In this document: piece by piece, positions 10,463 to 41,626 of the stretch
How the letters are laid out: each line of letters begins with the position of its first letter
Position numbering within the stretch: position 1 is the stretch's first letter
Origin: a virus
Lineage: Duplodnaviria; Caudoviricetes
IMG/VR virus record: IMGVR_UViG_3300020045_012203
Span: 1 to 58,392 of that record
Strand: one strand, 5' to 3'
Length of the DNA stretch: 58,392 nt
Program-made: the position numbers and the translations under genes
The notes under the pieces: generated by a model
What the model was told of the DNA's origin: nothing
The model's database searches: none
The model's input: the letters and a program-made list of their open reading frames with translations, nothing else

Positions 10463-10520
10463 GGGGTGTACTCAGGGCAATTGCGCCTGATTGTTTGGTT
10501 CGTGACCATACGCTCCACAA
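10463..10520 (+). ncRNA. D-armless tRNA-Ala-like element
   Basis: GGGGTGT/ACGCTCC with G3:U70; TCAGG/CCTGA stem enclosing TTGC; short T arm TGG-TTCGTGA-CCA; 3' ACAA. Confidence 0.45.
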
Positions 10521-10786
10521 TGTTCGTTGAAACTATTTTGAAACTATTAAGACGTGGGTTCGACTCCCACCACCTCCACCCAATTCGCCAATTGGAAAAT
10601 TCAGGTGACCGAATACTGACATTAAGTTGGGTGTGAAAATCGGTTAGTGGCTACATCGTACAGCCTGAATTTTTAAAACTTTCGGGGGTGTCTGGTTTTG
10701 ATTAGCAGATAGTATGGATAGCGGAGAACATTAAAGCCATAACAGGCAACGAATACCAAATGAAAGCAGCGGCTTAGAGTTGTTGC
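10521..10786 (+). ncRNA. ssrA: Circularly permuted (two-piece) tmRNA: acceptor piece ~10521-10580, coding piece from 10684
   Basis: GAC-GTGGG-TTCGACT-CCCAC-CACCTCC-ACC precedes GGGGGTG-TCTGGTTTTGA; 7-bp acceptor with G3:U70; P2 complementarity between the pieces; tag ORF GNEYQMKAAA* at 10745-10777. Confidence 0.85.
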
Positions 10787-10893
10787 GATCAAAGTAGGCG
10801 AACCTATACTTTAAATGGGTCCTATTAGTCTCTGAAGAAAAGGGAACACTTTCGGTGTAATGATAACCGATGGCAGCCGGAAAGACGGCAAAT

Positions 10894-10967
<74 letters not shown>

Positions 10968-11041
10968 CAATGCGTTTAGAAAGTTTCTCACGGCTAGTGA
11001 AGTATTCGGTTAACCAGACCGACTTCGCTTGTTTTTTCTAT

Positions 11042-17940: not shown

Positions 17941-19193
17941 ATGAACATACTTAGCCTATTCGATGGAATGGGGTGTGGTGCTATTGCTTTGCGTGAATTA
18001 AACGACAAGGTTGATAAATACTATGCCTCTGAAATTGATAAATATGCAATCGGTCAAACAAAATTAAACTTTCCTGATGTCATTCATTTAGGGTCGGTTG
18101 TCGATGTCGATGTTTCACAATTAGAGCCTATCCAATTACTGCTTGGTGGCTCACCTTGTCAATCGTTCAGCTTTGCCGGAAAGAGAAAGGGAATGTCAAC
18201 AAAATGCGAAATACAGATTACTAAACTTCATCAATACTTGGAACTGAAAGAACAAGGTTTTGAGTTTGAAGGACAATCGTATTTATTTTGGGAATACATG
18301 AGGATTTTAACTGACATTAGAAAGTAAACCCTGATGTAAAATTCTTGCTTGAAAACGTTGAAATGGGTGCTAAATGGGAACGTATCTTATCCGAAGCAAT
18401 TGGAGTTTTCGGAGTACATATCAATTCTGCTTTAGTTTCAGCTCAGAACCGGAAAAGGATTTATTGGACAAATATCAGGACTAAACAAGTAGGTTTATTC
18501 GGTGAACTTCATTCTGATATTCCACAACCAAAAGACCGGGAAATCTTACTTAAAGATATTTTAGAAAGTGAAGTTGATGAAAAGTATTATTTGAGCAACA
18601 TAGCCTTAGATTATATTGAAAGAGGAAAAGAAAGAGGCCGGGACCGAATTTCAATTAATGATGGTTCAGATAAAACTACTTGTCTTACTCAAAATTATCA
18701 CAAAGGAGTTCACAACCAGGGAGAAACTTATGTATGTGTTGCTAAAGACAATTTGGTAATGCAAATCAATCCCTCACTTGAAAGTGGAGGAAAACAGCCA
18801 TACCAACACAATCGAATTTACGACACGGAAGGTATTTCACCATGCCTGAATACAGATGCAAGACCTCCGGCAATACTTACTGAAAACTATCTTCAATTAA
18901 AAGGAAATGGCTTTGATTCAGATAATAGATTCTTTTACGAAGATGGAAAACATGGGTCAGTATTAACTAGGGGTGAAGATAAAACAGGAGTTGTTTTAGG
19001 TAGTAAAATTCGCAGACTAACCCCGACTGAATGTGCAAGACTTCAAACTATTCCTGATTGGTATGTCTGGATTTGTAGCGATACACAGCAATACAGAATG
19101 TTAGGAAACGGATGGACCGTTGAAGTCATAAAACACATCTTATCATTTGGAAACTTTAAATCAATAAACCAATATGAACAAACCAAACACTAA
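17941..19193 (+). pseudogene. C5-cytosine DNA methyltransferase split by a 1-nt frameshift near 18325
   Basis: LSLFDG and GSPCQSFS in the first ORF; LLENV, AQNRKRIYW, RRLTPTECARLQ and LGNGW in the second. Confidence 0.85.
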
Positions 19194-19903: not shown

Positions 19904-20542
19904 ATGATGATACCAAAAACATCCAAACAACCAAAGCCTAAACTTTGCCAACGAACTAAAGGTTGTGGGAATTTAAGAATGAAACAACCGGGCAATTCAA
20001 CTCTTTATTTTAAGGGCTGTATTGATTGTGAGATTGAGGCTAATTTAAGCAAGCATAGGCAAGAAGTGGCACAAGATAAGACAGAACTCGAAAAAGTCCG
20101 TCAGATCAAGAAAAACACCCCACAGGAGAAGTTTTATCAACTCACAGCATGGAAGAATTGCAGTAAGGCGGTATTACTTCATTATGCCGACGATGATTTG
20201 ATGGTAGTCTGTTCCACTTCCGGAAGAGCGTATGAGGTCAATAGTGCTGATTTACATTGTGGTCACTACTACAAATCTAACGAACACAAAGCAACAGCCT
20301 TTGAATTTAAGAACCTTGCTCCACAATCGGCAAGCGATAACACTAAAAAAGGTGGATTACCTGAAGTTATGGCTGAATGGATTGAACGAACTCACGGACC
20401 AGGTACTTTAGAATGGCTAGACCGGAAGAAAAATGAAACACTTCACTTGGATAAAATCACACTTGAACAGATTTCAAAGTTTTATCTGAATATGCTGAAC
20501 GAAGAATTGAAACGAAGAAATATTAAAAACCCTTGGAAATGA
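19904..20542 (+). CDS. NinG/Rap-like recombination endonuclease
   Basis: VCSTSG..HCGHY..TAFEFKNLAPQ..DN..GG...GPGTLEWL pattern. Confidence 0.7.
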   Translation: MMIPKTSKQPKPKLCQRTKGCGNLRMKQPGNSTLYFKGCIDCEIEANLSKHRQEVAQDKTELEKVRQIKKNTPQEKFYQLTAWKNCSKAVLLHYADDDLMVVCSTSGRAYEVNSADLHCGHYYKSNEHKATAFEFKNLAPQSASDNTKKGGLPEVMAEWIERTHGPGTLEWLDRKKNETLHLDKITLEQISKFYLNMLNEELKRRNIKNPWK

Positions 20543-20805
20543 CCAAAGTTTATATAATTGGTGCCAAACATACCGATATTGAAAATATTAGGATAATGGC
20601 AAATGTTCCAGAAAGTACTGAGATTATCTTAATTGATAAGATGAGTGATCTTCCAGATGGAATAACCGAAGTTTTCAGCGCACATAAAAGGGATATTCCA
20701 CAAATTCAAGAGGCTTATCCAATTGTAAATATTCCAATATTCGAGCCTCAGTTTTTTCCTGAAAAACGGAAGTCATACGAACGACCTTATAAATTTCACA
20801 GATGA
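20533..20805 (+). CDS. Hypothetical protein
   Basis: Operon packing. Confidence 0.5.
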   Translation: MEMTKVYIIGAKHTDIENIRIMANVPESTEIILIDKMSDLPDGITEVFSAHKRDIPQIQEAYPIVNIPIFEPQFFPEKRKSYERPYKFHR

Positions 20806-21077
20806 AAAAAGTAACTCCATTCTCAAACGCATCTGAAGCCTGTTCGTGGCTTGATCAGAATTGCGATGTATGTAAACGGTGGCAATGTTCTGCAAAAGTA
20901 GCTATTCAAAAAGGCCTCATTTCGGGCGAAATAACCGAACGTATGGCAAGTTTTATCGGATACACCTACCATGCCAATAAATTTGAATCACTCTATCCTA
21001 AATGTGGTCATTTTACAACTGTTCCTGTATTGAGGAAGAAAAAGAAATGTGAAAATAACGACCTAATTCTATTCTGA
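20802..21077 (+). CDS. Cys-rich hypothetical protein
   Basis: PFSNASE..W...NCDVC; operon packing. Confidence 0.55.
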   Translation: MKKVTPFSNASEACSWLDQNCDVCKRWQCSAKVAIQKGLISGEITERMASFIGYTYHANKFESLYPKCGHFTTVPVLRKKKKCENNDLILF

Positions 21078-21079
21078 TT

Positions 21080-21739
21080 ATGGCAAAGGATAAAAAATCT
21101 GTTCTGGTTTATGTCGATTGGATAACAACTTTTGAAGAATTAGAGGATGATGAAGCCGGAAGATTGATTAAACATTTCTTTCGATACGTCAACGATCTCA
21201 ATCCTGAACCACCAGACCGATTGACAAAATTAGTGTTTGAAAACATTAAGGCTCAACTAAAAAGAGATTTAAAAGCGTACGAGCAAACTTGTAATAAAAA
21301 CAAGGAAAATGCAGAAAAAAGATGGCAACAAAAAAATGCGACCGCATACGATGGCATAAAGTCGCATCAAAAAAATGCCGATACAGATAATGATACAGAT
21401 AATGATACAGATATAGAGTTATCTAAAGATAACAGTAAAGAATCTTTATTACCCAAATATCAGTCTGATTTTTTTGATTCCTTAATTCCCCTTGTTGATG
21501 AGTTTGGAAAAGAAACATGCCGCGATTTTTACGACTACTGGACTGAGCCAAATAAATCAAAAACAAAAATCAGATGGCAGCTTGAAAAAACATGGGATTT
21601 AAGAAAAAGAATTACAAGGTGGTCAAATAACAATTTTAAAAAATCAAATGGAGGAAAACAACAAGAACGATCAGTTAGTGAAAGGTCAGTGGAACTTGAC
21701 GGAATTGTTTCGGCAGTCTTTGCATCGAAAAGAATGTGA
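21080..21739 (+). CDS. Replication initiator (DUF6291-like, lambda O-like organisation)
   Basis: KKSVLVYVDW..L.D.EAGRL N-terminus; DTDNDTDN linker; FYDYWTE..W..EKTW..RW C-terminus. Confidence 0.75.
   Translation: MAKDKKSVLVYVDWITTFEELEDDEAGRLIKHFFRYVNDLNPEPPDRLTKLVFENIKAQLKRDLKAYEQTCNKNKENAEKRWQQKNATAYDGIKSHQKNADTDNDTDNDTDIELSKDNSKESLLPKYQSDFFDSLIPLVDEFGKETCRDFYDYWTEPNKSKTKIRWQLEKTWDLRKRITRWSNNNFKKSNGGKQQERSVSERSVELDGIVSAVFASKRM
21380..21413 (+). repeat. 12-bp tandem repeat GATACAGATAAT x~2.8; probable origin region
   Basis: Direct repeats in the initiator linker. Confidence 0.55.
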
Positions 21740-22097
21740 AAATATTTCTGAAATTTCTATCTACAAAGGACAGATAGCCGAAGAATCAACCATAAAATCA
21801 GAAGTGATGAAATTAGTTGCAGCCTTCCCGAACATTAAAAATGATTTTATAATTGTTTTGATCGAAAGGCTCATCGAAAATGGATTCACAAAAGAAAGGG
21901 TTCACGATGCAATTTCAAAAACAATTGACACCAACCCATATCAACGACCATCAATAGCTGATATTATTTCTTTTGACCGTAAAATTAAAACTTACAGCTA
22001 TTCTGATATATCAGCAAAGTGCTATCCTGGATATTCTGCTTTTGATCATTTTGATAAAATTGAAATTGAAGGCCGAAAACGATACATTGAGAAATAA
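21648..22097 (+). CDS. Replication accessory protein (helicase-loader position)
   Basis: Overlaps the initiator; PSIADII motif. Confidence 0.5.
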   Translation: MEENNKNDQLVKGQWNLTELFRQSLHRKECENISEISIYKGQIAEESTIKSEVMKLVAAFPNIKNDFIIVLIERLIENGFTKERVHDAISKTIDTNPYQRPSIADIISFDRKIKTYSYSDISAKCYPGYSAFDHFDKIEIEGRKRYIEK

Positions 22098-22116
22098 ACG
22101 CTCCAAGTAAGAGAAC

Positions 22117-22686
22117 TTGATTATGAACCAAGAAATAAACAACTACATATCAGTACGCTACGAACGATGGCTTGATTATTCAAAATACAATTGCACGAAA
22201 AAGGGCATTGATGGAGAGTCAATAGATATTCTTGACGAAGTTATTATTTCACTTCTAAGCAAGGATGAATCTAATCTGCTTAGGATGCTCCGGACTCCAT
22301 CAAAATGTGGAAGGTTTATGGAGCTTGATATTTTCGTGCTCAGAATGATCAGGCTGAATATATACTCGCCAACGTCACCCTATCAAAGCAAGTACAAGCC
22401 AATTCCAAGGGCAAACAAAGACCTAAGGAGGCTTAACATTGCAGATGTGGAACAAGATCAGTCGGACAGGACAGAAACGATCTTAGAACAGTTTAAGCTA
22501 GTGCGAAAAACACTTGACGAATTAAATATATCATCAAACGCCCGCGCAATATTCGATTTTAAATTCACAAACGGACTTTCATTTAACGAATGGCCCGGAC
22601 ATGAAGATATAAAAAAACTCTATGCAACTTATAAAAAAGTTGAAAACTTAATAAAGGATAAAATAGCAGGGAAGACAATATTTTAA
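22117..22686 (+). CDS. Sigma-factor-like transcription regulator
   Basis: Region-2-like DILDEV..L and C-terminal region-4-like L...R.IF..KF; at the end of the replication module. Confidence 0.45.
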   Translation: MIMNQEINNYISVRYERWLDYSKYNCTKKGIDGESIDILDEVIISLLSKDESNLLRMLRTPSKCGRFMELDIFVLRMIRLNIYSPTSPYQSKYKPIPRANKDLRRLNIADVEQDQSDRTETILEQFKLVRKTLDELNISSNARAIFDFKFTNGLSFNEWPGHEDIKKLYATYKKVENLIKDKIAGKTIF

Positions 22687-22694
22687 CACAACAT

Positions 22695-22712
22695 TGAACC
22701 TATTTGAAACTT
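22695..22712 (+). repeat. Left boundary motif (copy 2)
   Basis: Identical to 11082-11099. Confidence 0.85.
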
Positions 22713-22731
22713 ACATCATAATAAAACAACT

Positions 22732-22950
22732 ATGAAATTTATTAAAGATTTATCAGTAAAAGTAACCTACACCGTAGGACTTGGGAACCTAGAAGTTTCC
22801 GAAAAGGTATTTAAAGAGTTAAATAAAATTGAGAAAAACGGAAGTATTGATGGAACAGGAATGGATTACCCAGAGGCAGTGGAATGGCTGCGTAATAACA
22901 TTAGAGAACGTGACTGTCACGACATTGAGTACACAGTTGAATTAATTTAG
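22732..22950 (+). CDS. Hypothetical protein
   Basis: ORF with an A-rich leader. Confidence 0.6.
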   Translation: MKFIKDLSVKVTYTVGLGNLEVSEKVFKELNKIEKNGSIDGTGMDYPEAVEWLRNNIRERDCHDIEYTVELI

Positions 22951-22996
22951 TTCAATTAACTGAAATTGATCTGTTTTAACCTTCAGACATGATTTT

Positions 22997-23308
22997 ATGC
23001 AAGATATAAGCTTAGATGAAATTTCAAAAAGAGTGACCGATGCGATATTATCACAACCATACATCAATCGGGAAAAACTACAATCCTTAATCAGACCAAT
23101 TTTAAAGGTTTGGCTGAAAAGTACTGATGAATTTAAAAGCCAAAAGGCTAATAAAACAAAGCTTCAGTTTACTATTGAAAATCGGGAAGTGCAACAAAAG
23201 TTTTGGCTTTCAAAGGTTCGTGAATTGGTTGGAAATGAGAATATGCAACCGTTTTACGATGAACTTGATTACATACTTACAGAACAGGGTTATAAATCTA
23301 AAAATTAA
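22997..23308 (+). CDS. Hypothetical protein
   Basis: ORF. Confidence 0.6.
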   Translation: MQDISLDEISKRVTDAILSQPYINREKLQSLIRPILKVWLKSTDEFKSQKANKTKLQFTIENREVQQKFWLSKVRELVGNENMQPFYDELDYILTEQGYKSKN

Positions 23309-23312
23309 CGCA

Positions 23313-23621
23313 ATGGACGAAAAACAACAAGCAAGAGAATTGCACGCAATTAGCCAGCAGCATGGCATTGGAAGTGGAATGAAAGACCTTTTTAATAAAA
23401 CACCATTCTTACTAAATGATATTGAAGAAGAAAAAAACGATACTGATTTTTGGGTAGAATGCAATGTTTGTAAGCAACATCTAAAAAACTGGGTAGGATC
23501 AACTCCTTGCTGTGGATCAATAGCATTCATCGTTGAAAACGGAAAGATGACTAATAAATTATCTCTGTTTGCATCAATAAATGGAGGTGAAATAAATCCT
23601 TCAATTTTGGAAATAACTTAA
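23313..23621 (+). CDS. Hypothetical Cys-containing protein
   Basis: Likely start ATG 23313 (MDEKQQ); CxxC...PCCG. Confidence 0.55.
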   Translation: MDEKQQARELHAISQQHGIGSGMKDLFNKTPFLLNDIEEEKNDTDFWVECNVCKQHLKNWVGSTPCCGSIAFIVENGKMTNKLSLFASINGGEINPSILEIT

Positions 23622-23628
23622 ATCCTTT

Positions 23629-23647
23629 GGTTCAACTATAGGAATTT
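23629..23647 (+). repeat. Right boundary motif (copy 2)
   Basis: Identical to 12112-12130. Confidence 0.85.
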
Positions 23648-23662
23648 TAACAATAAAAAATT

Positions 23663-23758
23663 ATGAAAGCACAAAAATGCCCTTGCTGTGGATATTTAGA
23701 TATTATCGTCGATGGGGCTTGTCTAAATCAATGTCCACAATCTGAACTAAAAAGATAA
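23663..23758 (+). CDS. 31-aa Cys-rich peptide
   Basis: MKAQKCPCCGYLDIIVDGACLNQCPQSELKR*; its stop overlaps TAAC of the first attC-like site. Confidence 0.4.
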   Translation: MKAQKCPCCGYLDIIVDGACLNQCPQSELKR

Positions 23759-23882
23759 CGGTTGGTGGTATGAAATCGAAGCGGATTGCGAGGACTGAAC
23801 TATCAAGTTACAAAATACTTGGCACGTGGCAGACCGCTTCGAGAACCACTAAGACCGCTTTGTTTTATACCACGTGTTAGTG
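23753..23882. repeat. attC-like site 1
   Basis: TAAC 23756; GTGGTATGAAATCGAAGCGG / CCGCTTTGTTTTATACCAC; GTTAGTG 23876. Confidence 0.75.
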
Positions 23883-23922
23883 CCTGTACATTTTGATTAT
23901 CAACAATTTAAAAATTATAACA

Positions 23923-24285
23923 ATGGGAATGGATTTAACTTTACTACCGGCTTACAGTCAAAGAGCTGATTTTTCACATGATTTGTTAGACTTTCATCGT
24001 GATTACGAATTATTTGACAAGATTAACAAAAAATCAAAACAATTTGGAATACAAGTAAAAGAAGGTGGTATTCATAGTTTTTATTCGAGAAATGATGACT
24101 ATGAAGAACCCCATTACGGAAGCACCGAAGATGACCCTTATGGTGATAAATTGAAATATATAACCGCTAATCATTTGAAAGATGCCGTTAAAGACTTCAA
24201 AACCGATTCATGGAAAAACAAAGCAATAATTGCCTTTATAAACGAACTTCCTGATGATTTGCAGGTGTATTTGTATTGGCACTAA
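23923..24285 (+). CDS. Cassette 1 hypothetical protein
   Basis: MGMDLTLL...VYLYWH; stop lies within GCACTAAC. Confidence 0.7.
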   Translation: MGMDLTLLPAYSQRADFSHDLLDFHRDYELFDKINKKSKQFGIQVKEGGIHSFYSRNDDYEEPHYGSTEDDPYGDKLKYITANHLKDAVKDFKTDSWKNKAIIAFINELPDDLQVYLYWH

Positions 24286-24409
24286 CGGTGCGGTATTGTA
24301 GCAGGGCGGGATTTTACCCGAAAGCCTACTAAGTACCTACCATTTTCAAAACTCTAATTTCCTGTCCGGTACGCATAATACCCGACTTGACTACAATACT
24401 AAGTTATTA
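24280..24409. repeat. attC-like site 2
   Basis: TAAC 24283; GGTATTGTAG-CAGG / CTTG-A-CTACAATACT; GTTATTA 24403. Confidence 0.75.
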
Positions 24410-24453
24410 CCAGTGCTTTATTATTCAAATTACAAATATTTAAACTCATAAAA

Positions 24454-24834
24454 ATGCAACAAGCTATTATTTTAATCGGGTTATTTCTCTGTCATTGGCT
24501 TGCAGATTATACCCATTTGTCGATGCCGCACATGCTTGCAGCAAAAAGATTAGGAACACCATTATTTCCAATTTTGCAACATGCCGCTATCCATGCCCTG
24601 ATAATGACAATCTTTTTATTTTTCATTATTGGACTGCCCCAATTGTTGGTAATTAAATTAACAGCGGTTCAATTAATTACACACTTTTTAATTGATCTAT
24701 GGAAAGGTCGAATGAACGGATGGTTTCCTTTAATTCAAAGTCCGTCCAATAAATTTCATTGGTACGTTTTCGGATTCGATCAATATTTACACACGCTTGT
24801 AATTATTGCTATGTCGATGCTTGCAACATCTTAG
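24454..24834 (+). CDS. Cassette 2: DUF3307-like membrane protein
   Basis: HWLADY, HAAIH, THFLID..K and GFDQYLH motifs. Confidence 0.8.
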   Translation: MQQAIILIGLFLCHWLADYTHLSMPHMLAAKRLGTPLFPILQHAAIHALIMTIFLFFIIGLPQLLVIKLTAVQLITHFLIDLWKGRMNGWFPLIQSPSNKFHWYVFGFDQYLHTLVIIAMSMLATS

Positions 24835-24840
24835 CATTGG

Positions 24841-24973
24841 TAATAACGTTACGGCAAATACACGCAGGTGGGGTTAGTAGCACAGCTTTAAGAGAACCGA
24901 AACATAAAGTAAATGTGCATTGCCTATGTTCATATCGGTTACGCCCCACTTGCCGGGTATTTGTTTGTTAGCA
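24841..24973. repeat. attC-like site 3
   Basis: TAAC 24844; GCAAATAC..CAGGTGGGG / CCCCACTTG..GTATTTGT; GTTAGCA 24967. Confidence 0.75.
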
Positions 24974-25032
24974 ACTCGGCTTTATTTTACTTTAAGCGTC
25001 AAAACTAAAATAACAGAAATCATATTTTACTT

Positions 25033-25218
25033 ATGAATGAGATAAGAACTTTTATAGACATCGCTCCAAAAAAAGAATTAAATGTTTGCGGAAATTGCAA
25101 GCATTGGATTTGTTGGGGAGTTTCTACCGGTGTTTGCATGAATAGAAAAACTTGCACCCCGGATAAAATGAATTACCAAACCTGTAAAAAATTTGAACGA
25201 AATGAAACAAGAACTTAA
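25033..25218 (+). CDS. Cassette 3 gene A: small Cys-rich protein
   Basis: CGNCKHW..GVC..TCKKF. Confidence 0.6.
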   Translation: MNEIRTFIDIAPKKELNVCGNCKHWICWGVSTGVCMNRKTCTPDKMNYQTCKKFERNETRT

Positions 25219-25585
25219 ATTTAAAGCTGTTAGCAAAAAACTAAACAGAACTTTTGAACATGATAAAATCGACTTTTGGGGTGATCCTTTATGTGCAAGA
25301 GTTGGGGCAAGACCTTCATGCCCTGAATATGATACTAATGCTGAACTATTCCAGTTTGTGATAAAAGACAGAAACGGAAACAGGATTTATGCAAACATTG
25401 ATCATTTCATTTTCAACTATTGGGACGGAATAAAACATATCTCTTTAGTTGGTCATTTTGAATGGAATCAAGACGAATTAAGATATGAGGTCAAAGTCCA
25501 CAATAAAAATATAAGTCTGATGTATCTAACAGCAACAATGAAAGATTTTGAACTGATCAACAATGCGCCTCAAGCTGGTTGCTAA
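25202..25585 (+). CDS. Cassette 3 gene B: divergent YopX-like protein
   Basis: ELKFKA...LFQF..KDRNGNRIY; stop lies within TTGCTAAC. Confidence 0.55.
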   Translation: MKQELKFKAVSKKLNRTFEHDKIDFWGDPLCARVGARPSCPEYDTNAELFQFVIKDRNGNRIYANIDHFIFNYWDGIKHISLVGHFEWNQDELRYEVKVHNKNISLMYLTATMKDFELINNAPQAGC

Positions 25586-25709
25586 CGGCATAAATAACGG
25601 CAGGGGCGGATAAATAACGGTGTCTAATCCTGTCAGCGAAAATATTACAAGTACGGAAAGCCTTTGCACACGCAGGGTTGCCGCACTTGACCGTTATTGT
25701 AAGTTATTT
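25580..25709. repeat. attC-like site 4
   Basis: TAAC 25583; AATAACGG-CAGG / CTTG-A-CCGTTATT; GTTATTT 25703. Confidence 0.75.
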
Positions 25710-25743
25710 TTAGGATTTAATTAATCAATTTAAAATCAAATAC

Positions 25744-26148
25744 ATGTCAAATTTTAACGAATTTTCAAAAGAAGTTTTCGAAGCCAACAAACTAAAAGGC
25801 TTTGATGTAAGCAAAAACAACATTGGACAAACACTAATGTTAGTAGTTTCTGAATTGGCTGAAGCTCTTGAGGCTGATAGAAAGGACAAAAGAGCGAAAG
25901 AAAAAGGATTGAAATTTCTTGAAGAAAAAGAAAAAGACGAATGGGATCGTGATTTTAATGAAACACCAGAGCATTTTAAAAAAATGTTTGAATTGTACAT
26001 TAAAGACTCTTTCGAGGATGAAATTGCTGATTCATTCATTCGTCTGTTCGATTTAGTCGGAGGTCTAGAAATTGATATTGATTTTCATATCGCTCAAAAA
26101 AGGCGATATAATTCTCTCAGGCCACACATGCACGGCAAAGCGTATTAA
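25744..26148 (+). CDS. Cassette 4: MazG-like NTP pyrophosphohydrolase
   Basis: LMLVVSELAEALEADR...EDEIADSFIRLFDL...K..YN..R..HGKAY. Confidence 0.85.
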   Translation: MSNFNEFSKEVFEANKLKGFDVSKNNIGQTLMLVVSELAEALEADRKDKRAKEKGLKFLEEKEKDEWDRDFNETPEHFKKMFELYIKDSFEDEIADSFIRLFDLVGGLEIDIDFHIAQKRRYNSLRPHMHGKAY

Positions 26149-26154
26149 GCTTGA

Positions 26155-26283
26155 AAATAACGCTGATGTATAGCGGCAGAGACGGATTCGGAGCGAAAGC
26201 CTGTCGAACCGAAATGAAGCCGATGCGAGAGTTGCAGCCAGAACACCGATACAGCCGGATTTGACCGCTATACAAAGTTGTAA
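26155..26283. repeat. attC-like site 5
   Basis: TAAC 26158; TGTATAGCGG-CAGA / TTTG-A-CCGCTATACA; GTTGTAA 26277. Confidence 0.75.
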
Positions 26284-26291
26284 CCTAGTGC

Positions 26292-26321
26292 TTATTCATA
26301 GTCAAATTATTCATAGTCAAA
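26292..26321 (+). repeat. 15-bp tandem duplication TTATTCATAGTCAAA x2
   Basis: Read directly from sequence. Confidence 0.8.
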
Positions 26322-26349
26322 TATTTATAAATCTTAAAAATTAAACAAA

Positions 26350-26850
26350 ATGAAAGTATTTATCGCAACAGTTTTAACAATATTGGCTTTGTCAATATTT
26401 GGAGTCGTAATTGTAAAAAGTATTTCAATGAAACAAAATTGCACTGGCTATTTAAAAAGAGCGGCAGATGCAAACACTGTTGAAACTGCAAAAGAGCAGT
26501 TAGAAAAATCAATTTCGTATTTAGAAGCAAACGGACTAACTACCGGATACACTTCTGTTTTATGGAGAACCCCCGATGAAGACATTGAGTTTTGGTTTAA
26601 AAACCTAAAAGCAAGCCAAAACGAATTATCGAAAGTTGATAGTACAACATCTTCTTTGGAAAAATCCAATCTTTTAATGAAGCTGCGGGAAACTCTTATT
26701 GATAATGGAGAAAAAGGAGATAACCTAACTGTTCCTAAAGGTCTGTCAAGATACCCAAATAACACGCTTTTCGGAATACTCATGTGGATTGGTGGTTTTA
26801 TCATTGTCGGTCTATTTGTCTGGGCTGGTGTCGAATTTGGCGACTATTAG
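26350..26850 (+). CDS. Cassette 5: two-TM membrane protein
   Basis: N- and C-terminal hydrophobic helices around a soluble domain. Confidence 0.7.
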   Translation: MKVFIATVLTILALSIFGVVIVKSISMKQNCTGYLKRAADANTVETAKEQLEKSISYLEANGLTTGYTSVLWRTPDEDIEFWFKNLKASQNELSKVDSTTSSLEKSNLLMKLRETLIDNGEKGDNLTVPKGLSRYPNNTLFGILMWIGGFIIVGLFVWAGVEFGDY

Positions 26851-26898
26851 CATTGGTTACAACTTGTAAATACCCGCAGTTAATTACTCAAAACACCA

Positions 26899-27141
26899 AT
26901 GAAACCAATACTTTTAAAAATAGCATATCGGTATCGTGGACTTGATTATTTAGTTGCTGATTCTGCAGGAAATCTATATTTAGTGCCTCATTTCCATTAT
27001 CGAAGAACTGTTTATTTTAAAAAGTTAGAACCGTTTGAGAATGGTAATAAAAAAGCGATCAACTATCACAAATCGAACGTTTCTTTCAAACAGTTAAGAG
27101 AAAGAAAAATACCAGTTGATGAAACAATTGAAGTTTATTGA
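26899..27141 (+). CDS. Hypothetical basic protein
   Basis: ORF ending before the bidirectional terminator. Confidence 0.55.
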   Translation: MKPILLKIAYRYRGLDYLVADSAGNLYLVPHFHYRRTVYFKKLEPFENGNKKAINYHKSNVSFKQLRERKIPVDETIEVY

Positions 27142-27169
27142 ATAGTTCGACTTTTGGAGTATCCGAACC

Positions 27170-27210
27170 AAAAAAAAAGGCCATCATGATTGCTCATGAT
27201 GGCCTTTTTA
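27170..27210. terminator. Bidirectional terminator between convergent operons
   Basis: A-run, GGCCATCATGA-TTGC-TCATGATGGCC, T-run. Confidence 0.8.
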
Positions 27211-27233
27211 ATTCAATGCTTTATTTTAGTTTA

Positions 27234-27437
27234 TTATTCAGGTAGTTTTCTCGGACCTTCGACAATACAAATATCAAGTTCTTTAAAAATCAGTTCCAGA
27301 CTTTTTGAATTTATTCCTGCTTTCCCTTTTTCAAAGTTTGATATTGCAGCCTGACGAATACCTGTTTTTTCGGATAGTATTTTTTGAGTAATGCCTTTTT
27401 TTACCCTTACGTTTTTTACAAATTCATGTAGATTCAT
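27234..27437 (-). CDS. XRE-family HTH regulator
   Basis: RVKKGITQKILSEKTGIRQAAISNFEKG. Confidence 0.85.
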   Translation of the reverse strand: MNLHEFVKNVRVKKGITQKILSEKTGIRQAAISNFEKGKAGINSKSLELIFKELDICIVEGPRKLPE

Positions 27438-27469
27438 TGTCTTATTTTTTGTGGTTATTTTTTACGGTT

Positions 27470-28972
27470 TTAAGCTCTCCTCATCTTTTCAGATTTAGTT
27501 TTTTCTGTGCCTTTTTGTTTATGATCTGTTTTTTGTGGAATCTGCCAACCTTTAATTTTAGAAACTGCCTGGTTAAATTGCATCCAAACCTTTTCGTCTA
27601 TAAATTCAAAGTGCATTGTGTTTTTTTTATAGCCTCTGACGCGAAAAAAATCATTCCATTGCACCCATTGTCCCCATTCAGTTTTATTGTAGCTGAAAAA
27701 CGAATACAGACTGTTATGTGTGAAATTTTCACTTCCGTATTGGTCTATGTGCTTTAGACTATTTACATCTTCAAATTTTTTACCAGTCAAAAAGCAAAGA
27801 GCCTTGATAATATCATCTAGCCGGTTATTGCTATGTCCACACCTGATTTTGACATTATCAGCTGGCCATCGTTTATCCCATTCGCAAACATAGGAGTCTA
27901 TAAACCTTAAATTTACTTTGTAATTGCTGTTTGTTTTCCATTTTTCCCCGGCCTCTGAATTGTCGTGCGATAAACTGCAAATATGATCGAAAGCCTCGAC
28001 CAGTACTTTATCCATTATTCCGGCGTGAGTTCCTACAATCATTTCGAGCATTAAGTAGATGTTTTTTACGGTAAATGGTACGTTTTGCTGCTGTTCAACG
28101 AATTTATTTATGTCTGCCATTACTCCGCTGGTTACATACTTATTCATGTTCATTTCAGCGAAAATCGACCTCCATGCAGACTTTTGTAGTTCCTTTTTAA
28201 AAATATCCCTGTCAAGTTTTGAATAGTGTTTATTTGAGTCCGTCCAATGTGCGCCAAATCCGATCCCCAGGTAGGAATTTATGGGACCAATCAAAGCATT
28301 TATTTTTTGTGATATGGGTTGTATCTCATCCCATAATTTAACCGATCCAACGTAACGCGAAACAATATCCTGAACCTTTGAATAGGTCATAATTCCGTTT
28401 TGTTGCCGGTCCATGTCTTCTGTCAAATCAAAATACCCATCAAACTCATCATTTTCAGTTGTTTTTGGCTTGGTCAATTTTACTAAGCCTATGCAGACTT
28501 TTGTTTTCCGTTCTGAGTCAGAAAAAATAGAGCCTAGTTTTTTATATGAACCTTCATTTTTTATGAGTTCATTCAGTTTTTTACGGCTTTTTGTGTAATC
28601 GTTTTTTATCGTTTCGCCGTTGCAAAGTGAAATTATTTGGCATCCTTCCGGCGCAATGTCCCAGGCATGAATAATGTGTTTTTCATCTGCTGAAAATGGC
28701 GGGTTCATTATGATGTAGTCAATATGACTAATCTCATCCGGTTGAACTTCCAGAAAATCAGATTTTAGGAATTGACATTTTTCTGAAACTATTTTAGCCA
28801 AATCTTCATTTAATTCACAGCATAAAACATTGGCTCCGTATAATTGCAGATAGTCAACAATTTTTCCAGATCCTGCTGAAGGTTCCAGGATTCTTTTTCC
28901 GGATAGGTTTATGCCTTCGCACATTAATTCGATTGCTTTTTTCGGTGAGGGGTAGAAATCAGGGGAAAACAT
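27470..28972 (-). CDS. DUF4942-type protein with N-terminal amino (N6A) methyltransferase domain
   Basis: DFYPSP, ILEPSAGSG and IIMNPPF; C-terminal FFRVRGYKKNTMHFEF. Confidence 0.85.
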   Translation of the reverse strand: MFSPDFYPSPKKAIELMCEGINLSGKRILEPSAGSGKIVDYLQLYGANVLCCELNEDLAKIVSEKCQFLKSDFLEVQPDEISHIDYIIMNPPFSADEKHIIHAWDIAPEGCQIISLCNGETIKNDYTKSRKKLNELIKNEGSYKKLGSIFSDSERKTKVCIGLVKLTKPKTTENDEFDGYFDLTEDMDRQQNGIMTYSKVQDIVSRYVGSVKLWDEIQPISQKINALIGPINSYLGIGFGAHWTDSNKHYSKLDRDIFKKELQKSAWRSIFAEMNMNKYVTSGVMADINKFVEQQQNVPFTVKNIYLMLEMIVGTHAGIMDKVLVEAFDHICSLSHDNSEAGEKWKTNSNYKVNLRFIDSYVCEWDKRWPADNVKIRCGHSNNRLDDIIKALCFLTGKKFEDVNSLKHIDQYGSENFTHNSLYSFFSYNKTEWGQWVQWNDFFRVRGYKKNTMHFEFIDEKVWMQFNQAVSKIKGWQIPQKTDHKQKGTEKTKSEKMRRA

Positions 28973-29019
28973 AGATTATTATTTTTTAGTGAAGGATTTA
29001 TTTTTTTTTGTGGAGTAGT

Positions 29020-29184
29020 TTAATTACTGCCAACTAAATGCCATCCACCTTCAGAAAATTCACTTTTTAGCGTATATCCTAAATGTTTGGCTTTTTCTAT
29101 TGCTGCTTTTTTGTTTTTTACTACAACGGTTAATCTGATTAATTCTCCGTTTACATTTTCTGCCATTGCTCTAAAAGTTTTCAT
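29020..29184 (-). CDS. Small hypothetical protein (54 aa)
   Basis: MKTFRAMAENVNGELIRL...; co-oriented with neighbours. Confidence 0.45.
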   Translation of the reverse strand: MKTFRAMAENVNGELIRLTVVVKNKKAAIEKAKHLGYTLKSEFSEGGWHLVGSN

Positions 29185-29369
29185 TTCATTTGTTTTTTTG
29201 TGGATTAATACCCGAATATTTTTTTCAGTAGTTCAGAATCGCTTAAAAACCTGCGTAAATGTCCAGTTGATTTGAATTTTGAATTGGGAACGTCAAGTTT
29301 TTTTATGCCTGACTCTTCAGTGATTGCGATATAACCGTATTTAGTATTCATTTTTTATAGATTGGTTTT

Positions 29370-30242
29370 TTAAACTGCTATTTTACACTTGATAAATTCA
29401 GGAAGGTTAACACAGTCCCGGTAAGGAGTAAAAATTACTTCCGGCTCAACTTCATAAGGAATGTTAACACCTTCGATTTTTTGCGGATTGGTTATGTACT
29501 TCCAGCAAAGTTTAATCAAATAGTTGTTATTTGCCTTGCTATATGCCTTTAAAACCCTGTTTTTATAAGCTTCTTTGTGTTCTTCTGAGATACCAACGCC
29601 GTTAAACTCATTTCTTAAACGCTCAATATATTTTTGATCATTTATCGAGCGGGTTTTATCAAAAGCGTTTCTTTTTTCGACTACTTTATTTTTCGGACAT
29701 TCTACAAAATTAGCCTTGATTTTTGGCAGTAAATCAACGGCCTGACAAACTGATAGTTCAAACTGAAAATCTCCGTAAAATAAACTTGAATTTTCACGCT
29801 CTTCGGTATTGTAATAAATGAAGTCATACGTTGCGTTTCTGACTTGTAAATCTGTTTTCGCTTGCTTCATTTCGATGAACGCGGCCAGCGTGTCGCCTGG
29901 TTCCGTTTCAATATCATGAATAGTTGTATCAATCCATTTTTTCAGGTCATTCATGGCAGCCGTGCGGATTTCTTTTGTACTCATCCTTTTTTCTCCGTGT
30001 TCAGTGTGTCTCGGCTTTTTGGCCGTTGATCTATCCTGATTTTTTACAATCGGCTGTTTTTTCTGTTCCGGCTCCTGTTCTATTGTTTTTTCGGGTTCTG
30101 AAACGTTGTTTTTTACGGTTATTTTAGCCTGAAGCAAGCAGACTAACAAAAGGATTGAAAGAGAAATAAACGGTGCCAAATCGCTTAAAATAGCGTTGTG
30201 ATTTATCGCGTGTGTTTGGATGAAATAGAATATTGAGTTCAT
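29370..30242 (-). CDS. Hypothetical protein with N-terminal TM anchor
   Basis: Long ORF with one hydrophobic segment. Confidence 0.65.
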   Translation of the reverse strand: MNSIFYFIQTHAINHNAILSDLAPFISLSILLLVCLLQAKITVKNNVSEPEKTIEQEPEQKKQPIVKNQDRSTAKKPRHTEHGEKRMSTKEIRTAAMNDLKKWIDTTIHDIETEPGDTLAAFIEMKQAKTDLQVRNATYDFIYYNTEERENSSLFYGDFQFELSVCQAVDLLPKIKANFVECPKNKVVEKRNAFDKTRSINDQKYIERLRNEFNGVGISEEHKEAYKNRVLKAYSKANNNYLIKLCWKYITNPQKIEGVNIPYEVEPEVIFTPYRDCVNLPEFIKCKIAV

Positions 30243-38963: not shown

Positions 38964-40838
38964 TTGATGAGCGAAGAAGCCACGATAGAAAAAAAACCAG
39001 TTGATATAAAGCACAAGCAACAGCTTGCCATTAAGACGATGAACGATTTCACCTATTCGCTTCTGTATGGTGGTAGTAGGTCTGGAAAGTCGTTCATTAT
39101 CATGTTTATGATGCTAATTACGGCCAATAAATACAAGTGTCGTCAGCTTATCGTTCGTTTCCACTTCACCGATGTAAAAAAGTCAATCATTCACGAAACC
39201 CTGCCTGAAGTTGCCGCGATGTTGGGGATAACTTACCACTTAAATCAACAAGACTGGTTTATTACCCTTCCAAACGGTGCCGAAATATGGTTTGGTGGTA
39301 TCGACGAAGGCCGGGGGCTTGACCGTGTTCTTGGTAAACAATACCTGAATATTTGGTTTAATGAGGCTTCGGACATTGCTTACGATGCTTATACTACGGT
39401 TTTAACCCGACTTGCTGAACGTGTTTTGCGGATTGACCGTAACGCAAAGCCTGTTTATAAGAAAAAACCGGACGGAACATGGTTGTTGACCGAAAAGGGC
39501 GGTAAGATACGCGATGAAGTACGAAACCATGCCTTTATTGACGAAAACCCACCGAAAAAGAGTCATTGGACATACAAACTGTTCTTCGATAACATTGAGC
39601 CCGAAAGCCGGACTTTGCTTGATAATGCCGATGAATATGGGGTGATGCAACTCAACCCTGGCGATAATGCCGAAAACATATCCGAAGGATACCTGAAACG
39701 ACTGGAAGCCATGCCGCCAAAGCAACGAAAACGCTTCTTATTGGGTGAGTTCTCCGATGATATTTCCGGTGCGTTGTTCACCGAGGCTTGCATCAACCGA
39801 AACAGGCGAATACAACATCCATATCTCAAACAAGTGGTTATTTCTATTGACCCGGCCACCACATCAAAATCAACTTCTGACGAAACCGGAATAACGGTTG
39901 AAGGTAAAGATGAAAATGACCGTGGGTATTTACTCGAAGACAGGTCCGGAATCTATAAGCCGAATGAATGGGCTGAAATTGCCGTTAAACTTTTCTTCAA
40001 ATGGGATGCTGATTTTATTGTGGCCGAAATTAATCAGGGTGGTGAAATGGTTAAGGCTACGATAAACAATCACAACCGAAACGTCCCGGTTAAAACTGTT
40101 CATGCCACCAAAGGTAAGATGCTTCGTGCTGAACCGATTTCATTTTTGTATGAAGAGGACCTGATTAGTCATGTTGGGGCGTTCCCTGATGCTGAGGATG
40201 AAATGGTAAGCTTTACTGGTGCCGAAGGTGAAAAGAGTCCGAATAGGCTTGATTCCATCGTCCACGGCTTTACGTTCCTGTTCCCTGTTGGTAAATCTGC
40301 CGAAGCAGAATATTTCAACCGCGATAAAGTGAGGTATTTTGAAAAGATTAACCTGGCTGATGGTGAAAACATAGGCTACATCAATATTTCCGATTCCGAT
40401 AATTATTCGTTCACCATGCTTTGCCTGAAAATTAAGGACAAAAAAGTATTCCAGACCGAAGTACTTTTTAACGACTATATGCCTTCCGGTAATATCAAGG
40501 CAATAACCGACATGATTTCCAGAAATTCACTCGAAACGGTATTTGTCGAATGTTCCATGGCTTATTCGCCTTTTGTGCGCGAATTGAACTCGTTGGATTT
40601 AACAACCATTCGCGGGGTTAAGGCCATGCCTGAAGAAGAAAACCGGATCTTGATTGAATCAAATTTTATTGTTGAAAAATTCCTATTCCTGAAAGAACCT
40701 GAATCAATCCAATACAAGGATTTCATGCGCCAGCTTCATTCCTATACCTCAGTTTCCGAAAAAGATGAACGTTTCGCACCGGCGGCACTGGCCGGAATAA
40801 GCAAAATACTGAAAAAGTTATATCAAGATAATTTATGA
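38964..40838 (+). CDS. Terminase large subunit with a C-terminal extension
   Basis: YGGSRSGKS (Walker A); IWFNEA (Walker B); ISIDPA..SDETG..SPNRLDS nuclease motifs. Confidence 0.9.
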   Translation: MMSEEATIEKKPVDIKHKQQLAIKTMNDFTYSLLYGGSRSGKSFIIMFMMLITANKYKCRQLIVRFHFTDVKKSIIHETLPEVAAMLGITYHLNQQDWFITLPNGAEIWFGGIDEGRGLDRVLGKQYLNIWFNEASDIAYDAYTTVLTRLAERVLRIDRNAKPVYKKKPDGTWLLTEKGGKIRDEVRNHAFIDENPPKKSHWTYKLFFDNIEPESRTLLDNADEYGVMQLNPGDNAENISEGYLKRLEAMPPKQRKRFLLGEFSDDISGALFTEACINRNRRIQHPYLKQVVISIDPATTSKSTSDETGITVEGKDENDRGYLLEDRSGIYKPNEWAEIAVKLFFKWDADFIVAEINQGGEMVKATINNHNRNVPVKTVHATKGKMLRAEPISFLYEEDLISHVGAFPDAEDEMVSFTGAEGEKSPNRLDSIVHGFTFLFPVGKSAEAEYFNRDKVRYFEKINLADGENIGYINISDSDNYSFTMLCLKIKDKKVFQTEVLFNDYMPSGNIKAITDMISRNSLETVFVECSMAYSPFVRELNSLDLTTIRGVKAMPEEENRILIESNFIVEKFLFLKEPESIQYKDFMRQLHSYTSVSEKDERFAPAALAGISKILKKLYQDNL

Positions 40839-41626
40839 TTAGAACAGACATAAGTAGTGAACATTTAGGCGACTGTCTGGAATTAATGCCATTAATTACA
40901 TGCAAAAGCATTGATATGATATTGTGCGATTTGCCGTATGGAGTACTCAATAAATCCAATGCTTCTGCCAAATGGGATTCAGTCATTCCATTTGATTTAT
41001 TGTGGAATCAATATGAGCGAATTATCAAAGATAATGGTATTATCGTATTAACTTCTCAAGGCTTATTTACCTCAGACCTAATGTTGAGTAATCGGAAGTT
41101 GTGGCGATATAATTTAATTTGGAAGAAAGGCAATCGAACAAGTGGGTTTTTAAATGCAAATAGGCAACCGATGAGAAACCATGAAGATATTTGTATCTTT
41201 TATAAAAGTCTAGGTACATATAACCCACAAATGACTGTTGGTGAGAAAAATCACACGCGAGGTCATGGTAAGAATAATAAAAATGGATGTTATGGCGTTC
41301 ATAAATTCATCTCAGGAGATATACCTACAAATGAAAAATTTCCAATTTCAATTATTGACATAGATAAAGAACATCCCCAAATTCACCCCACTCAAAAACC
41401 AGTCGCTCTTTTTGAATACCTCATCCGCACCTACACCAACGAGGGCGAAACCGTCCTAGATAACACTGCTGGAGTTTTCACAACAGCCATTGCTTGCCTG
41501 AATACCAATCGAAATTATATTGTAATGGAAAAGGAGCAGGAATATTTCGATAAAGGTATAAAGCGGATAAAAGAACATAAAAGCAATAAAATGCAGTCAA
41601 TAAATTTTGAACTTGTAAATAGATAA
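40835..41626 (+). CDS. Beta-class N4C/N6A DNA methyltransferase
   Basis: ILCDLPYG; HPTQKPVALFEYLIRTYTNEGETVLDN. Confidence 0.9.
   Translation: MIRTDISSEHLGDCLELMPLITCKSIDMILCDLPYGVLNKSNASAKWDSVIPFDLLWNQYERIIKDNGIIVLTSQGLFTSDLMLSNRKLWRYNLIWKKGNRTSGFLNANRQPMRNHEDICIFYKSLGTYNPQMTVGEKNHTRGHGKNNKNGCYGVHKFISGDIPTNEKFPISIIDIDKEHPQIHPTQKPVALFEYLIRTYTNEGETVLDNTAGVFTTAIACLNTNRNYIVMEKEQEYFDKGIKRIKEHKSNKMQSINFELVNR

Follow-up and report, generated by a model that had tools for sequence, protein, structure and literature searches.

The region from 23757 to 26863 is very probably an array of five cassettes belonging to an integron-like system widespread among uncultured phages, the hosts of which are probably Bacteroidota. 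The window, by which we mean the whole stretch of DNA that was analyzed (58,392 nt; IMGVR_UViG_3300020045_012203; a Caudoviricetes phage, approximately 68% complete), carries here five hairpin elements of 121-125 nt, each running from AAC to GTT, with units of one or two genes between them (Table 1). Integrons are the textbook system for the capture and shuffling of genes, with a chemistry bound up with a single feature of their enzyme, the IntI insertion, and an earlier note on this DNA had read the region as integron-like. That reading gained support from related contigs, in which the arrays abut a tyrosine recombinase gene and which differ from one another by whole cassettes with ends at AAC.

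All five elements of ~130 bp claimed in the earlier note are present, its coordinates being 4 nt longer on each side than the AAC and GTT cores. Each was correctly described as an imperfect hairpin with a variable loop, the layout being TAAC, a 5-6-nt spacer, an imperfect stem, the variable loop, a return stem, 1-4 nt and GTT in 5/5 cases. The unequal spacers, put at about 5 versus 2 nt, were measured at 5-6 versus 1-4 nt, with 1-2 nt on the GTT side in four of the five sites, a geometry that departs from the classical attC description. A bulged A is found on the GTT-side arm, opposite the AAC, in three of the five sites, and a G-T stem pair in four. Judged by anatomy, which is directly supported by the sequence, the five sites have the AAC/GTT cores, paired stems, variable loop and, in three of the five, the extrahelical base of the attC type. 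Stop codons do fall in or next to the AAC box, two of them inside TAAC (24285 and 25585) and three 13 nt ahead of AAC (24834, 26148 and 26850). Fold z-scores of the single window elements are modest (-0.9 to -3.0). No sixth element was found in the 58-kb window with the five-element model (next best match 19 bits, E 0.046). Rfam at gathering thresholds matched one tRNA and one permuted tmRNA in the window but no family at the elements, and a megablast search of window positions 20000-30000 against GenBank phages gave no match.

Table 1. Coordinates of the array, its sites and its neighboring features in the window.
Feature	Position	Strand	Details
31-aa phage-backbone ORF	23663-23758	+	stop within the TAAC opening site 1
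Site 1	23757-23878	+	122 nt; 107 bits; 3' arm partially duplicated inside the element
Cassette 1 (AA/C model)	23759-24285	+	site 1, GTT arm 23876-23890, ORF 23923-24285, AAC arm 24272-24286
Site 2	24284-24405		by AAC and GTT cores
Cassette 2	24286-24846	+	site 2, arm 24403-24417, ORF 24454-24834, arm 24833-24847
Site 3	24845-24969		by AAC and GTT cores
Cassette 3	24847-25585	+	site 3, arm 24967-24982, two overlapping ORFs, arm 25572-25586
Site 4	25584-25705		by AAC and GTT cores
Cassette 4	25586-26160	+	site 4, arm 25703-25714, ORF 25744-26148, arm 26150-26161
Site 5	26159-26279		by AAC and GTT cores
Cassette 5	26161-26862	+	site 5, arm 26277-26292, ORF 26350-26850, arm 26849-26863
Array end	26849-26898	+	bare AAC half-site, then TTGTAAATACC; hairpin absent
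80-aa ORF	26899-27141	+	sits where relatives have the recombinase gene; without family
Terminator-like hairpin	27174-27209		closes the rightward transcription unit containing the array

The ORF of cassette 1 encodes 120 aa without a family, that of cassette 2 a DUF3307 membrane protein (PF11750, 4e-11; phrog_2470), that of cassette 4 a MazG-like pyrophosphatase (phrog_9236, 7e-31) and that of cassette 5 a 166-aa membrane protein. Cassette 3 holds ORFs of 61 aa (25033-25218) and 127 aa (25202-25585) with a weak phrog_98 match, and relatives of the 127-aa protein were absent in IMG/VR, as were relatives of the gene directly upstream of the array (23127-23621). In L045-L047, where the DUF4942 methyltransferase that flanks the array has relatives, no synteny with the array was seen, and the 80-aa ORF that follows it had no relative among the fetched loci. 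Hairpins were almost absent from 44 viral loci with MazG-like homologues, in which model R1 gave a match in L013 (34 bits, 5.6 kb from the gene) and two weaker ones in L042 (E 0.4-0.8), and DUF3307 homologues were bracketed by arms in only 2 of 12 scored loci (L139 had no GTT/AAC pair in range). As homologues of these two genes are so rarely flanked by hairpins or arms, they are ordinary phage genes in most places.

The outer arms had been claimed to pair across each gene and not within an element, and this held when the GTT arms were scored against the AAC arms in a 5 x 6 matrix. The best partner of each GTT-side arm was the AAC-side arm past the next gene (13, 14, 11, 12 and 10 of 15 positions), as compared with 5, 10, 9, 7 and 7 of 15 for the AAC arm of its own element. 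Among 200,000 random GTT/AAC pairs from the window, at least 13/15 was reached at a frequency of 5.5e-5 and at least 12/15 at 7.9e-4. The arm pairs of cassettes 1 and 2 were also reported by a repeat search (I20 and I15, respectively), and the AAC arm of site 1 has no upstream partner, scoring at most 10/15 against any GTT arm. When the cassettes were joined in silico, a check that the earlier note had put forward, the arms paired at 14, 15, 15, 8 and 15 of 18 positions, compared with 0, 0, 7, 0 and 5 of 18 for the same positions in the context of the array, and the fold improved by 0.9-9.8 kcal/mol. Circularizing a cassette regenerates a fully paired site.

A scan of other phages with a custom model, also suggested earlier, was productive: a search model built from the window's five elements alone recovered 33 more elements, which are spread over 18 other phage contigs and covary strongly. 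In the alignment of these 33 sites, which was fitted to the model, 94.4% of stem cells are paired, versus 63.0% after shuffling and 35-50% when the partners are slid, and compensatory changes, which directly support the stems, occur in 17 of 22 stem pairs. One stem pair is G-U in 25 of 32 related sequences. Covariation is equally direct in the arms, as homologous genes carry different arm pairs that covary. Among inter-cassette elements defined by arms alone (n=57), the closing helix has at least 8 pairs in 46, with a median fold z-score of -2.86. In 48 of the 57 the better fold is that of the coding strand, a strand asymmetry that suggests a single-strand mechanism. Because the arm scan was noisy at scores of at least 10 (419 hits versus 195 in shuffled sequence), chains and scores of at least 11.5 were relied on. 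The related arrays include methyltransferase cassettes. A host among the Bacteroidota is plausible, and a PAPS-reductase look-up in Atlas gave only a weak hint in this direction.

A co-occurring tyrosine recombinase, which the earlier note had proposed looking for, was detected in related contigs and not in the window, whose 58,392 nt contain none (no PF00589 match). In the recombinase-bearing contigs, 27 of 28 model matches lie upstream of, and on the same strand as, a gene for a 276-aa tyrosine recombinase. This adjacency is seen directly in the loci: an AAC stands 47-59 nt ahead of the recombinase start codon in 42 of 44, and an arm-paired cassette ends at this recombinase-proximal AAC in 30 of 44, with chains of up to 11. 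The arrays there end at a conserved motif, a fixed attI-like site made up of AAC and then a TATATGTA-like box, which is located ~52 nt before the recombinase gene in 40 of the 44 loci, with 0.01 expected per 32-nt window. The recombinase gene reads away from the array, and the cassette ORFs of the relatives are on the 5'-AAC...GTT-3' strand, reading toward it. The best PDB matches of the enzyme are archaeal XerA 4a8e and 5hxy (E 3e-34 and 7e-31), and it scores 187-191 bits against NF040815 (XerA; cut-off 220), 163-166 bits against the XerD/XerC models (cut-offs 330-335) and 159-161 bits against TIGR02249 (cut-off 265). Aligned with VchIntIA (2a3v) in two stretches, it has 21 residues (178-198) opposite 64 (181-244). 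By sequence, the relatives' enzyme is Xer/XerA-like, without the IntI insertion, which is an additional segment of the catalytic domain (I2 helix), and is not an IntI. A tblastn search of GenBank phages found no cultured carrier, the only match being at 34% identity in Polaribacter phage Leef_1.

Contigs that differ by whole cassettes provide evidence of mobility, and junction-precise differences, for which a comparison among related phages had been proposed, were observed at AAC in two pairs. L048 and L049 have in common a 700-nt block of 90% identity, running from AAC to AAC between unrelated flanks, and L052 and L053 are 94-98% identical on both sides of a single cassette of ~290 nt, inserted at AAC, by which they differ. 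AAC was found at the left HSP end in 26 of 65 cases and at the right end in 22 of 62, over a background of 16.5%. Two of the window's cassettes appear in other contexts in other metagenomes: one contig has window positions 26269-26865 (cassette 5) in different flanks, and the loose ends of contigs from another metagenome bracket 24401-24849 (cassette 2: 24401 and 24849). In a further metagenome, the stems of site 4 occur with a different loop. The nucleotide homology of cassette 5 to its homologues covers the gene only, not the hairpin or arms, and therefore holds no junction information. No RNA was listed among the sequencing runs with window-like sequence, which were three with shares of 0.05-0.07; as these are of small share and kept as contigs, rare excision products are beyond view.

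The hairpin most often moves with its downstream gene, so the exchange point is best placed between AA and C (AA/C) on the coding strand, not at G/TT, and with exchange at this point the genes lie opposite to those of classical cassettes relative to the site. Some shared blocks consist of the hairpin alone or of GTT-gene-AAC alone, which implies exchange on the GTT side too and is unpredicted by a single fixed cleavage point. A cassette comprises a 5' site, an arm of 12-16 nt, one or two small promoter-less ORFs and a complementary arm ending in AA. In the mechanism that we propose, the recombinase would bind the coding strand in its hairpin form; strand exchange at AA/C between two sites would excise the cassette as a circle, and exchange at AA/C that joins a cassette site to the attI-like site would insert it beside the recombinase, much as IntI acts on the attC bottom strand. 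The genes are carried by the folding strand and point toward the recombinase, so that upstream phage promoters would express the cassettes. These sequence comparisons would make the 276-aa recombinase the probable catalyst, single-stranded DNA its probable substrate and AA/C the probable cleavage point.

At the end of the window's array, the AAC and the TTGTAAATACC that follows it do not match the motif of the relatives, and a search for this motif gave one match with 3 mismatches versus 0.57 expected. As the recombinase and the attI-like site are both absent from the window, its array is an orphan, similar to a CALIN, and a 91%-complete relative with such sites likewise has no tyrosine recombinase. 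Either the array is a relic, or it is served in trans, by a co-infecting relative or by the 32% of the genome that is missing here. The earlier claim that the phage captures and shuffles genes in this manner consequently stands for the family and not for the window phage, which represents the orphan case: its sites are paired and intact, and enzyme and insertion site are absent.

Several other origins for this arrangement were weighed. The elements are intergenic and similar in length, with inverted-repeat ends, as MITE- or REP-like repeats inserted into intergenic palindromes would be. This alternative, which the earlier note had itself raised, is extremely unlikely, as the mean identity per column is only 63%, target-site duplications are absent, the elements' own flanks pair at 5-10/15 as against 10-14/15 across the gene, and all elements lie on one strand in one array, with no near-identical copies elsewhere in the 58 kb. 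In T4-like phages, modules are bounded by a promoter and stem-loop, and modules here could similarly have been swapped by homologous or microhomology recombination at conserved intergenic hairpins that serve as RNA processing or stability elements. The hairpin-only and gene-only shared blocks would fit such swapping, as would the lack of a recombinase in the window and in its 91%-complete relative; the strand that folds better is also the one transcribed, and at the RNA level the conserved wobble would be a G-U pair. We nevertheless consider this explanation unlikely, since the cassettes have cores of only 3-4 nt in common and arms that vary from one to the next, leaving little homology for recombination. 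Moreover, arm pairing across a gene has no obvious RNA role and regenerates the full site on circularization, arrays stop at one fixed motif by the recombinase gene, and the elements have no Rfam match and are not terminator-like.

It is quite unlikely that the region is a classical CALIN, the cassettes of which were made and moved by a host IntI and merely picked up by the phage, an origin that has been suggested for the phage CALINs in the literature. The AAC/GTT cores, the variable-loop hairpin, lengths in the attC range and the absence of an integrase nearby agree with the definition in the section of Cury 2016 drawn on here, and phage CALINs with IntI1-recombined sites are described in the part of Qi 2023 (PMC9892861) used. 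In the relatives, however, the enzyme fixed beside the arrays in 40-42 of 44 loci is the Xer-like protein of 276 aa with no IntI insertion, the folding strand is the one that carries the ORFs, the reverse of the classical cassette, and the spacers are lopsided (5-6 versus 1-4 nt).

If the preferred reading of an integron-like phage system holds, a compact Xer-like enzyme without the IntI insertion would appear to serve the integron site design, and the evolution of single-strand recombination from Xer-type enzymes would become testable with natural proteins. Phages would have a dedicated route by which small genes could be exchanged, among them DNA methyltransferases directed against host restriction, and integron tools that rely on IntI would overlook an entire class of cassette arrays. 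We lean slightly toward a wider interpretation, in which a large and so far undescribed lineage of compact Xer-like recombinases would perform integron-type chemistry on folded single-stranded hairpins without the I2 helix that is considered essential to this chemistry, Bacteroidota phages would use it to swap small accessory and anti-restriction genes, and orphan arrays would be reservoirs served in trans. Were this true, the integron design would have arisen twice, or the present system would stand close to the ancestor of that design before IntI.

Among known systems, integration of the CTX-phi type proceeds by Xer recombination of folded single-stranded DNA into chromosomal dif. The similarity lies in a Xer-family enzyme without the IntI insertion and a hairpin folded from one strand; in contrast to the present arrays, a whole phage genome integrates at dif there, and a cassette array and attI-like platform are absent. 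Archaeal XerA, which resolves chromosome dimers at dif, provides the best sequence matches of the relatives' recombinase (4a8e, 5hxy, NF040815), whereas that recombinase adjoins phage cassette arrays and scores below the XerA cut-off. The resemblance to integrons, especially sedentary chromosomal ones with attC sites of ~120-130 nt, extends to one-gene cassettes, imperfect AAC/GTT hairpins that have a variable loop and, opposite AAC, a bulged base, arms left unpaired until the cassette circularizes, a 5'-AAC strand that folds better and, in relatives, an array abutting a fixed site by a tyrosine recombinase gene that reads away from it. Unlike in integrons, the relatives' enzyme has 276 aa, is Xer/XerA-like and falls below every curated cut-off, the ORFs share the folding strand and are directed toward the recombinase rather than away from attI, the orientation in which a platform promoter reads integron cassettes, the spacers are 5-6 versus 1-4 nt, the arms 12-16 nt and the carrier a phage, and the window has neither enzyme nor attI-like site.

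According to the sections of Nivina 2016 drawn on here, the recombined strand has cleavage within 5'-AAC-3', extrahelical bases on the arm opposite, more G:T pairs and a lower folding energy, and all four features are found here on the coding strand; in the same sections, promoter-facing cassettes are stated never to have been observed in integrons. The portions of Escudero 2020 and Smyshlyaev 2021 consulted link the IntI insertion to single-strand recombination and describe it as essential for integron function, and its absence from the relatives' recombinase is a point against an integron-type mechanism. Cury 2016 defines, in the section cited, a CALIN as an attC cluster without an integron integrase; the 58-kb window has five sites and lacks a tyrosine recombinase, and the attC status of these sites depends on the curated attC models. 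A Xer-type phage cassette platform is undescribed in the literature searched, including the parts of Qi 2023 used, the Table S1 of which (all 17 CALINs) could bear on overlap with the present family. Those parts of Qi 2023 (Front Microbiol, PMC9892861) report integrase-less attC-type clusters in virulent phages, one of them a phage of Bacteroidota (Polaribacter phage P12002L), and their cargo includes DNA methyltransferase cassettes. Unlike the window array, these CALIN sites were found by canonical attC models and recombined by IntI1, and P12002L has two sites in divergent directions; like these phage CALINs, the arrays of the window's relatives also carry methyltransferase cassettes.

The window, a linear sequence that makes up the entire IMG/VR virus record (58,392 nt, completeness estimate 68%), contains all five TAAC...GTT hairpin elements described in the earlier note, with core coordinates from 23757 to 26279 and lengths of 121-125 nt. 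Each element begins with TAAC, a 5-6-nt spacer, an 8-12-bp stem, a CAGG-type box facing CTTG(A) and a short G+C stem, followed by a 60-80-nt loop, the return arms, 1-4 nt (1-2 nt in four of the five) and GTT, and the lopsided spacers noted previously (about 5 versus 2 nt) are thus reproduced. A search of the whole 58,392 nt yielded no sixth element. As the mean column identity of the five elements is only 63%, they are not copies of one repeat, which argues against the MITE or REP origin that the earlier note had raised as an alternative.

Features of the window
Feature	Position	Description
Element 1	23757-23878	AAC...GTT hairpin
Element 2	24284-24405	AAC...GTT hairpin
Element 3	24845-24969	AAC...GTT hairpin
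Element 4	25584-25705	AAC...GTT hairpin
Element 5	26159-26279	AAC...GTT hairpin
Array end	26863	bare half-site, no hairpin
Cassette cargo		120-aa protein, no family
Cassette cargo		DUF3307 membrane protein
Cassette cargo		61-aa + 127-aa pair
Cassette cargo		MazG-like pyrophosphatase
Cassette cargo		166-aa protein with hydrophobic ends
80-aa ORF		no family; in the place of the relatives' recombinase gene
Terminator-like hairpin	27174-27209	closes the rightward gene block
Circularly permuted tmRNA	10489-10968	Rfam RF04321, 56 bits; ARAGORN tag peptide GNEYQMKAAA*; tRNA-Met directly downstream
Exact 18-19-nt repeats, two pairs	11082, 22695 and 12112, 23629	TGAACCTATTTGAAACTT and GGTTCAACTATAGGAATTT
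C5 cytosine DNA methyltransferase	17941-19193	apparently split into two ORFs (PF00145 first piece, phrog_116 second)
N6/N4 DNA methyltransferase	40835-41626	not arm-bracketed

The arms flanking the GTT and AAC cores pair across genes, as proposed. For each GTT-side arm the best partner is the AAC-side arm past the next gene (13, 14, 11, 12 and 10 of 15), whereas pairing with its own element is poor (5-10 of 15); random GTT/AAC pairs reach at least 12 of 15 at a frequency of 7.9e-4. Mismatches fall at positions 10-11 and so divide the arm into 9 bp, a 2-nt bubble and 4-5 bp. When cassette ends were joined in silico, the circularization check suggested earlier, the arms paired at 8-15 of 18 positions and fold energy dropped by 0.9-9.8 kcal/mol. 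Both named cargo types, MazG-like and DUF3307, are indeed among the cassette genes.

A rightward block of genes for replication and modification (methyltransferases, NinG/Rap-like nuclease) ends with the array. In the window, A-rich leaders without a Shine-Dalgarno motif precede the start codons, as is usual in Bacteroidota. The two repeat pairs frame two unrelated gene blocks, the second of which stops just left of the array. Homologues of the apparently split C5 methyltransferase lie immediately ahead of the recombinase gene in two related viral contigs (L076, L118), at the place of the cassette arrays, and those of the N6/N4 methyltransferase (L104, L070/L071) are inside arm-bracketed cassettes adjoining it.

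Homologues of the 166-aa protein were found on 11 viral contigs (51-81% identity). In three of these (L048, L049, L052) they are flanked by the same element type, with arm pairs of other sequence that are still complementary, showing that the arms covary. L049 carries a row of eight cassettes, including D12-class and MT-A70 DNA methyltransferases. A bare AAC half-site closes the row, and a tyrosine recombinase gene, truncated by the contig end, begins 52 nt beyond it. Across 44 viral loci with a known recombinase start (near-duplicates L098-L100, L089/L090 and L070/L071 included), an AAC lies 47-59 nt upstream of that start in 42, and an arm-paired cassette ends at this AAC in 30, the longest chain counting 11 cassettes; of the 12 chain-less loci, six offer under 520 nt of sequence upstream. 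AAC plus a TATATGTA-like box, the attI-like motif, occupies this position in 40 of the 44 loci, against 0.01 expected per 32-nt window. In 55 recombinase loci, a model derived from the five window sites alone gave 28 matches (E 0.01 or better), 27 of them on the recombinase strand and all 27 upstream of the gene. One locus (L061, 133-1527) holds a single 464-aa ORF that joins, in frame, the N-terminal half of a C5 methyltransferase to recombinase sequence starting at about residue 62, which suggests that a rearrangement has struck the recombinase gene itself. In L062-L120, the contig end on the array side is often no more than a few hundred bases from the recombinase gene, which would fit assembly breaks from array variation among co-occurring strains.

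To define elements independently of any fold, 57 inter-cassette elements were picked by their arms alone. A closing helix of at least 8 pairs is present in 46, the median z-score is -2.86 (below -2 in 38), and in 48 the coding strand folds more stably. The custom-model scan of phage genomes envisaged in the earlier note found 33 sites in 18 loci other than the window; in the alignment of these matches, which was fitted to the model, 94.4% of cells are paired compared with 63.0% when shuffled and 35-50% with slid partners. Of 22 pairs, 17 show compensatory changes, and one pair is G-U in 25 of 32 sequences.

Comparison of relatives gave evidence of whole-cassette differences, in keeping with the proposed shuffling, although the window itself has no tyrosine recombinase. 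L048 and L049 share one 700-nt block (hairpin, gene and arms; 90% identity) that starts at TATAAC and stops at AACGTT between unrelated flanks. L052 and L053 differ by one cassette of about 290 nt (hairpin, arm, 63-aa ORF, arm) inserted exactly after AAC, the kind of junction-precise gain or loss that the earlier note proposed to look for, with 94-98% identity on either side. Among 74 high-identity blocks, ends carry AAC in 26/65 (left) and 22/62 (right) cases against a 16.5% background. Some blocks contain only a hairpin, or only GTT-gene-AAC; downstream they always end at AAC, upstream at either core. A single cleavage point does not explain two kinds of upstream boundary; recombination that sometimes uses the other strand, or gene conversion among hairpins that resemble each other, may be the cause. 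In other metagenomes, contigs assembled from three studies, each with a small share, show presence only: they include window 26269-26865 with 13 differences and other sequence on both sides (X1), loose ends at 24401 and 24849 framing the DUF3307 cassette, which a different hairpin follows there (X2), and the site-4 stems enclosing a different 34-nt loop (X3).

The co-occurring tyrosine recombinase that the earlier note sought is thus found beside arrays in relatives, but neither it nor an attI-like motif was detected in the 58,392 nt of the window. This makes the window's array an orphan that corresponds to a CALIN (attC cluster without integron integrase), the lack of the enzyme being judged on a record about 68% complete. 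The recombinase is also missing from L052, a 91%-complete relative with such sites. There, the array end (7109-7135) reads AAC then TATCTTATTTG, resembling the attI-like variant AAC-TATCATTTGTAC seen in L082 and L087, a likeness that would fit loss of the recombinase gene.

Full-length recombinases have 276-278 aa, are 80-90% identical among the best 120 of 3218 candidates (E 1e-20 or better, a set that includes general Xer proteins) and retain the catalytic residues R, K, HxxR, H and Y. GenBank phages yielded no relative closer than 34% identity, and in species-representative genomes seven of nine matches of at least 47% identity are on Bacteroidota MAG contigs (Flavobacterium, Flavobacteriaceae, Pedobacter, Chitinophaga, two Chitinophagales, 'Bacteroidota'). 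Scores fall under the curated cut-offs of the XerA, XerC, XerD and integron integrase models. The best solved relatives are archaeal XerA proteins; the alignment to the integron integrase VchIntIA breaks into two pieces, between which the recombinase has 21 residues against 64 in VchIntIA. For integron function the IntI insertion is described as essential (Smyshlyaev 2021), and it is credited with having opened the way to single-strand recombination (Escudero 2020).

Integrons and CALINs have already been reported from phage genomes, a Polaribacter phage among them (Qi 2023, PMC9892861); these were detected by canonical attC models, and IntI1 recombined their sites. A full-text literature search found no description of an Xer-type platform in phages. 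In classical integrons, according to Nivina 2016, the bottom strand is cleaved in 5'-AAC-3', carries its extrahelical bases on the arm opposite, is richer in G:T pairs and folds at lower energy; the coding strand of the window and its relatives shows all four of these bottom-strand properties. Read on that strand, the order in the relatives is recombinase, attI-like site, array, as in an integron, but the ORFs are inverted and read toward the recombinase, presumably transcribed from phage promoters upstream.
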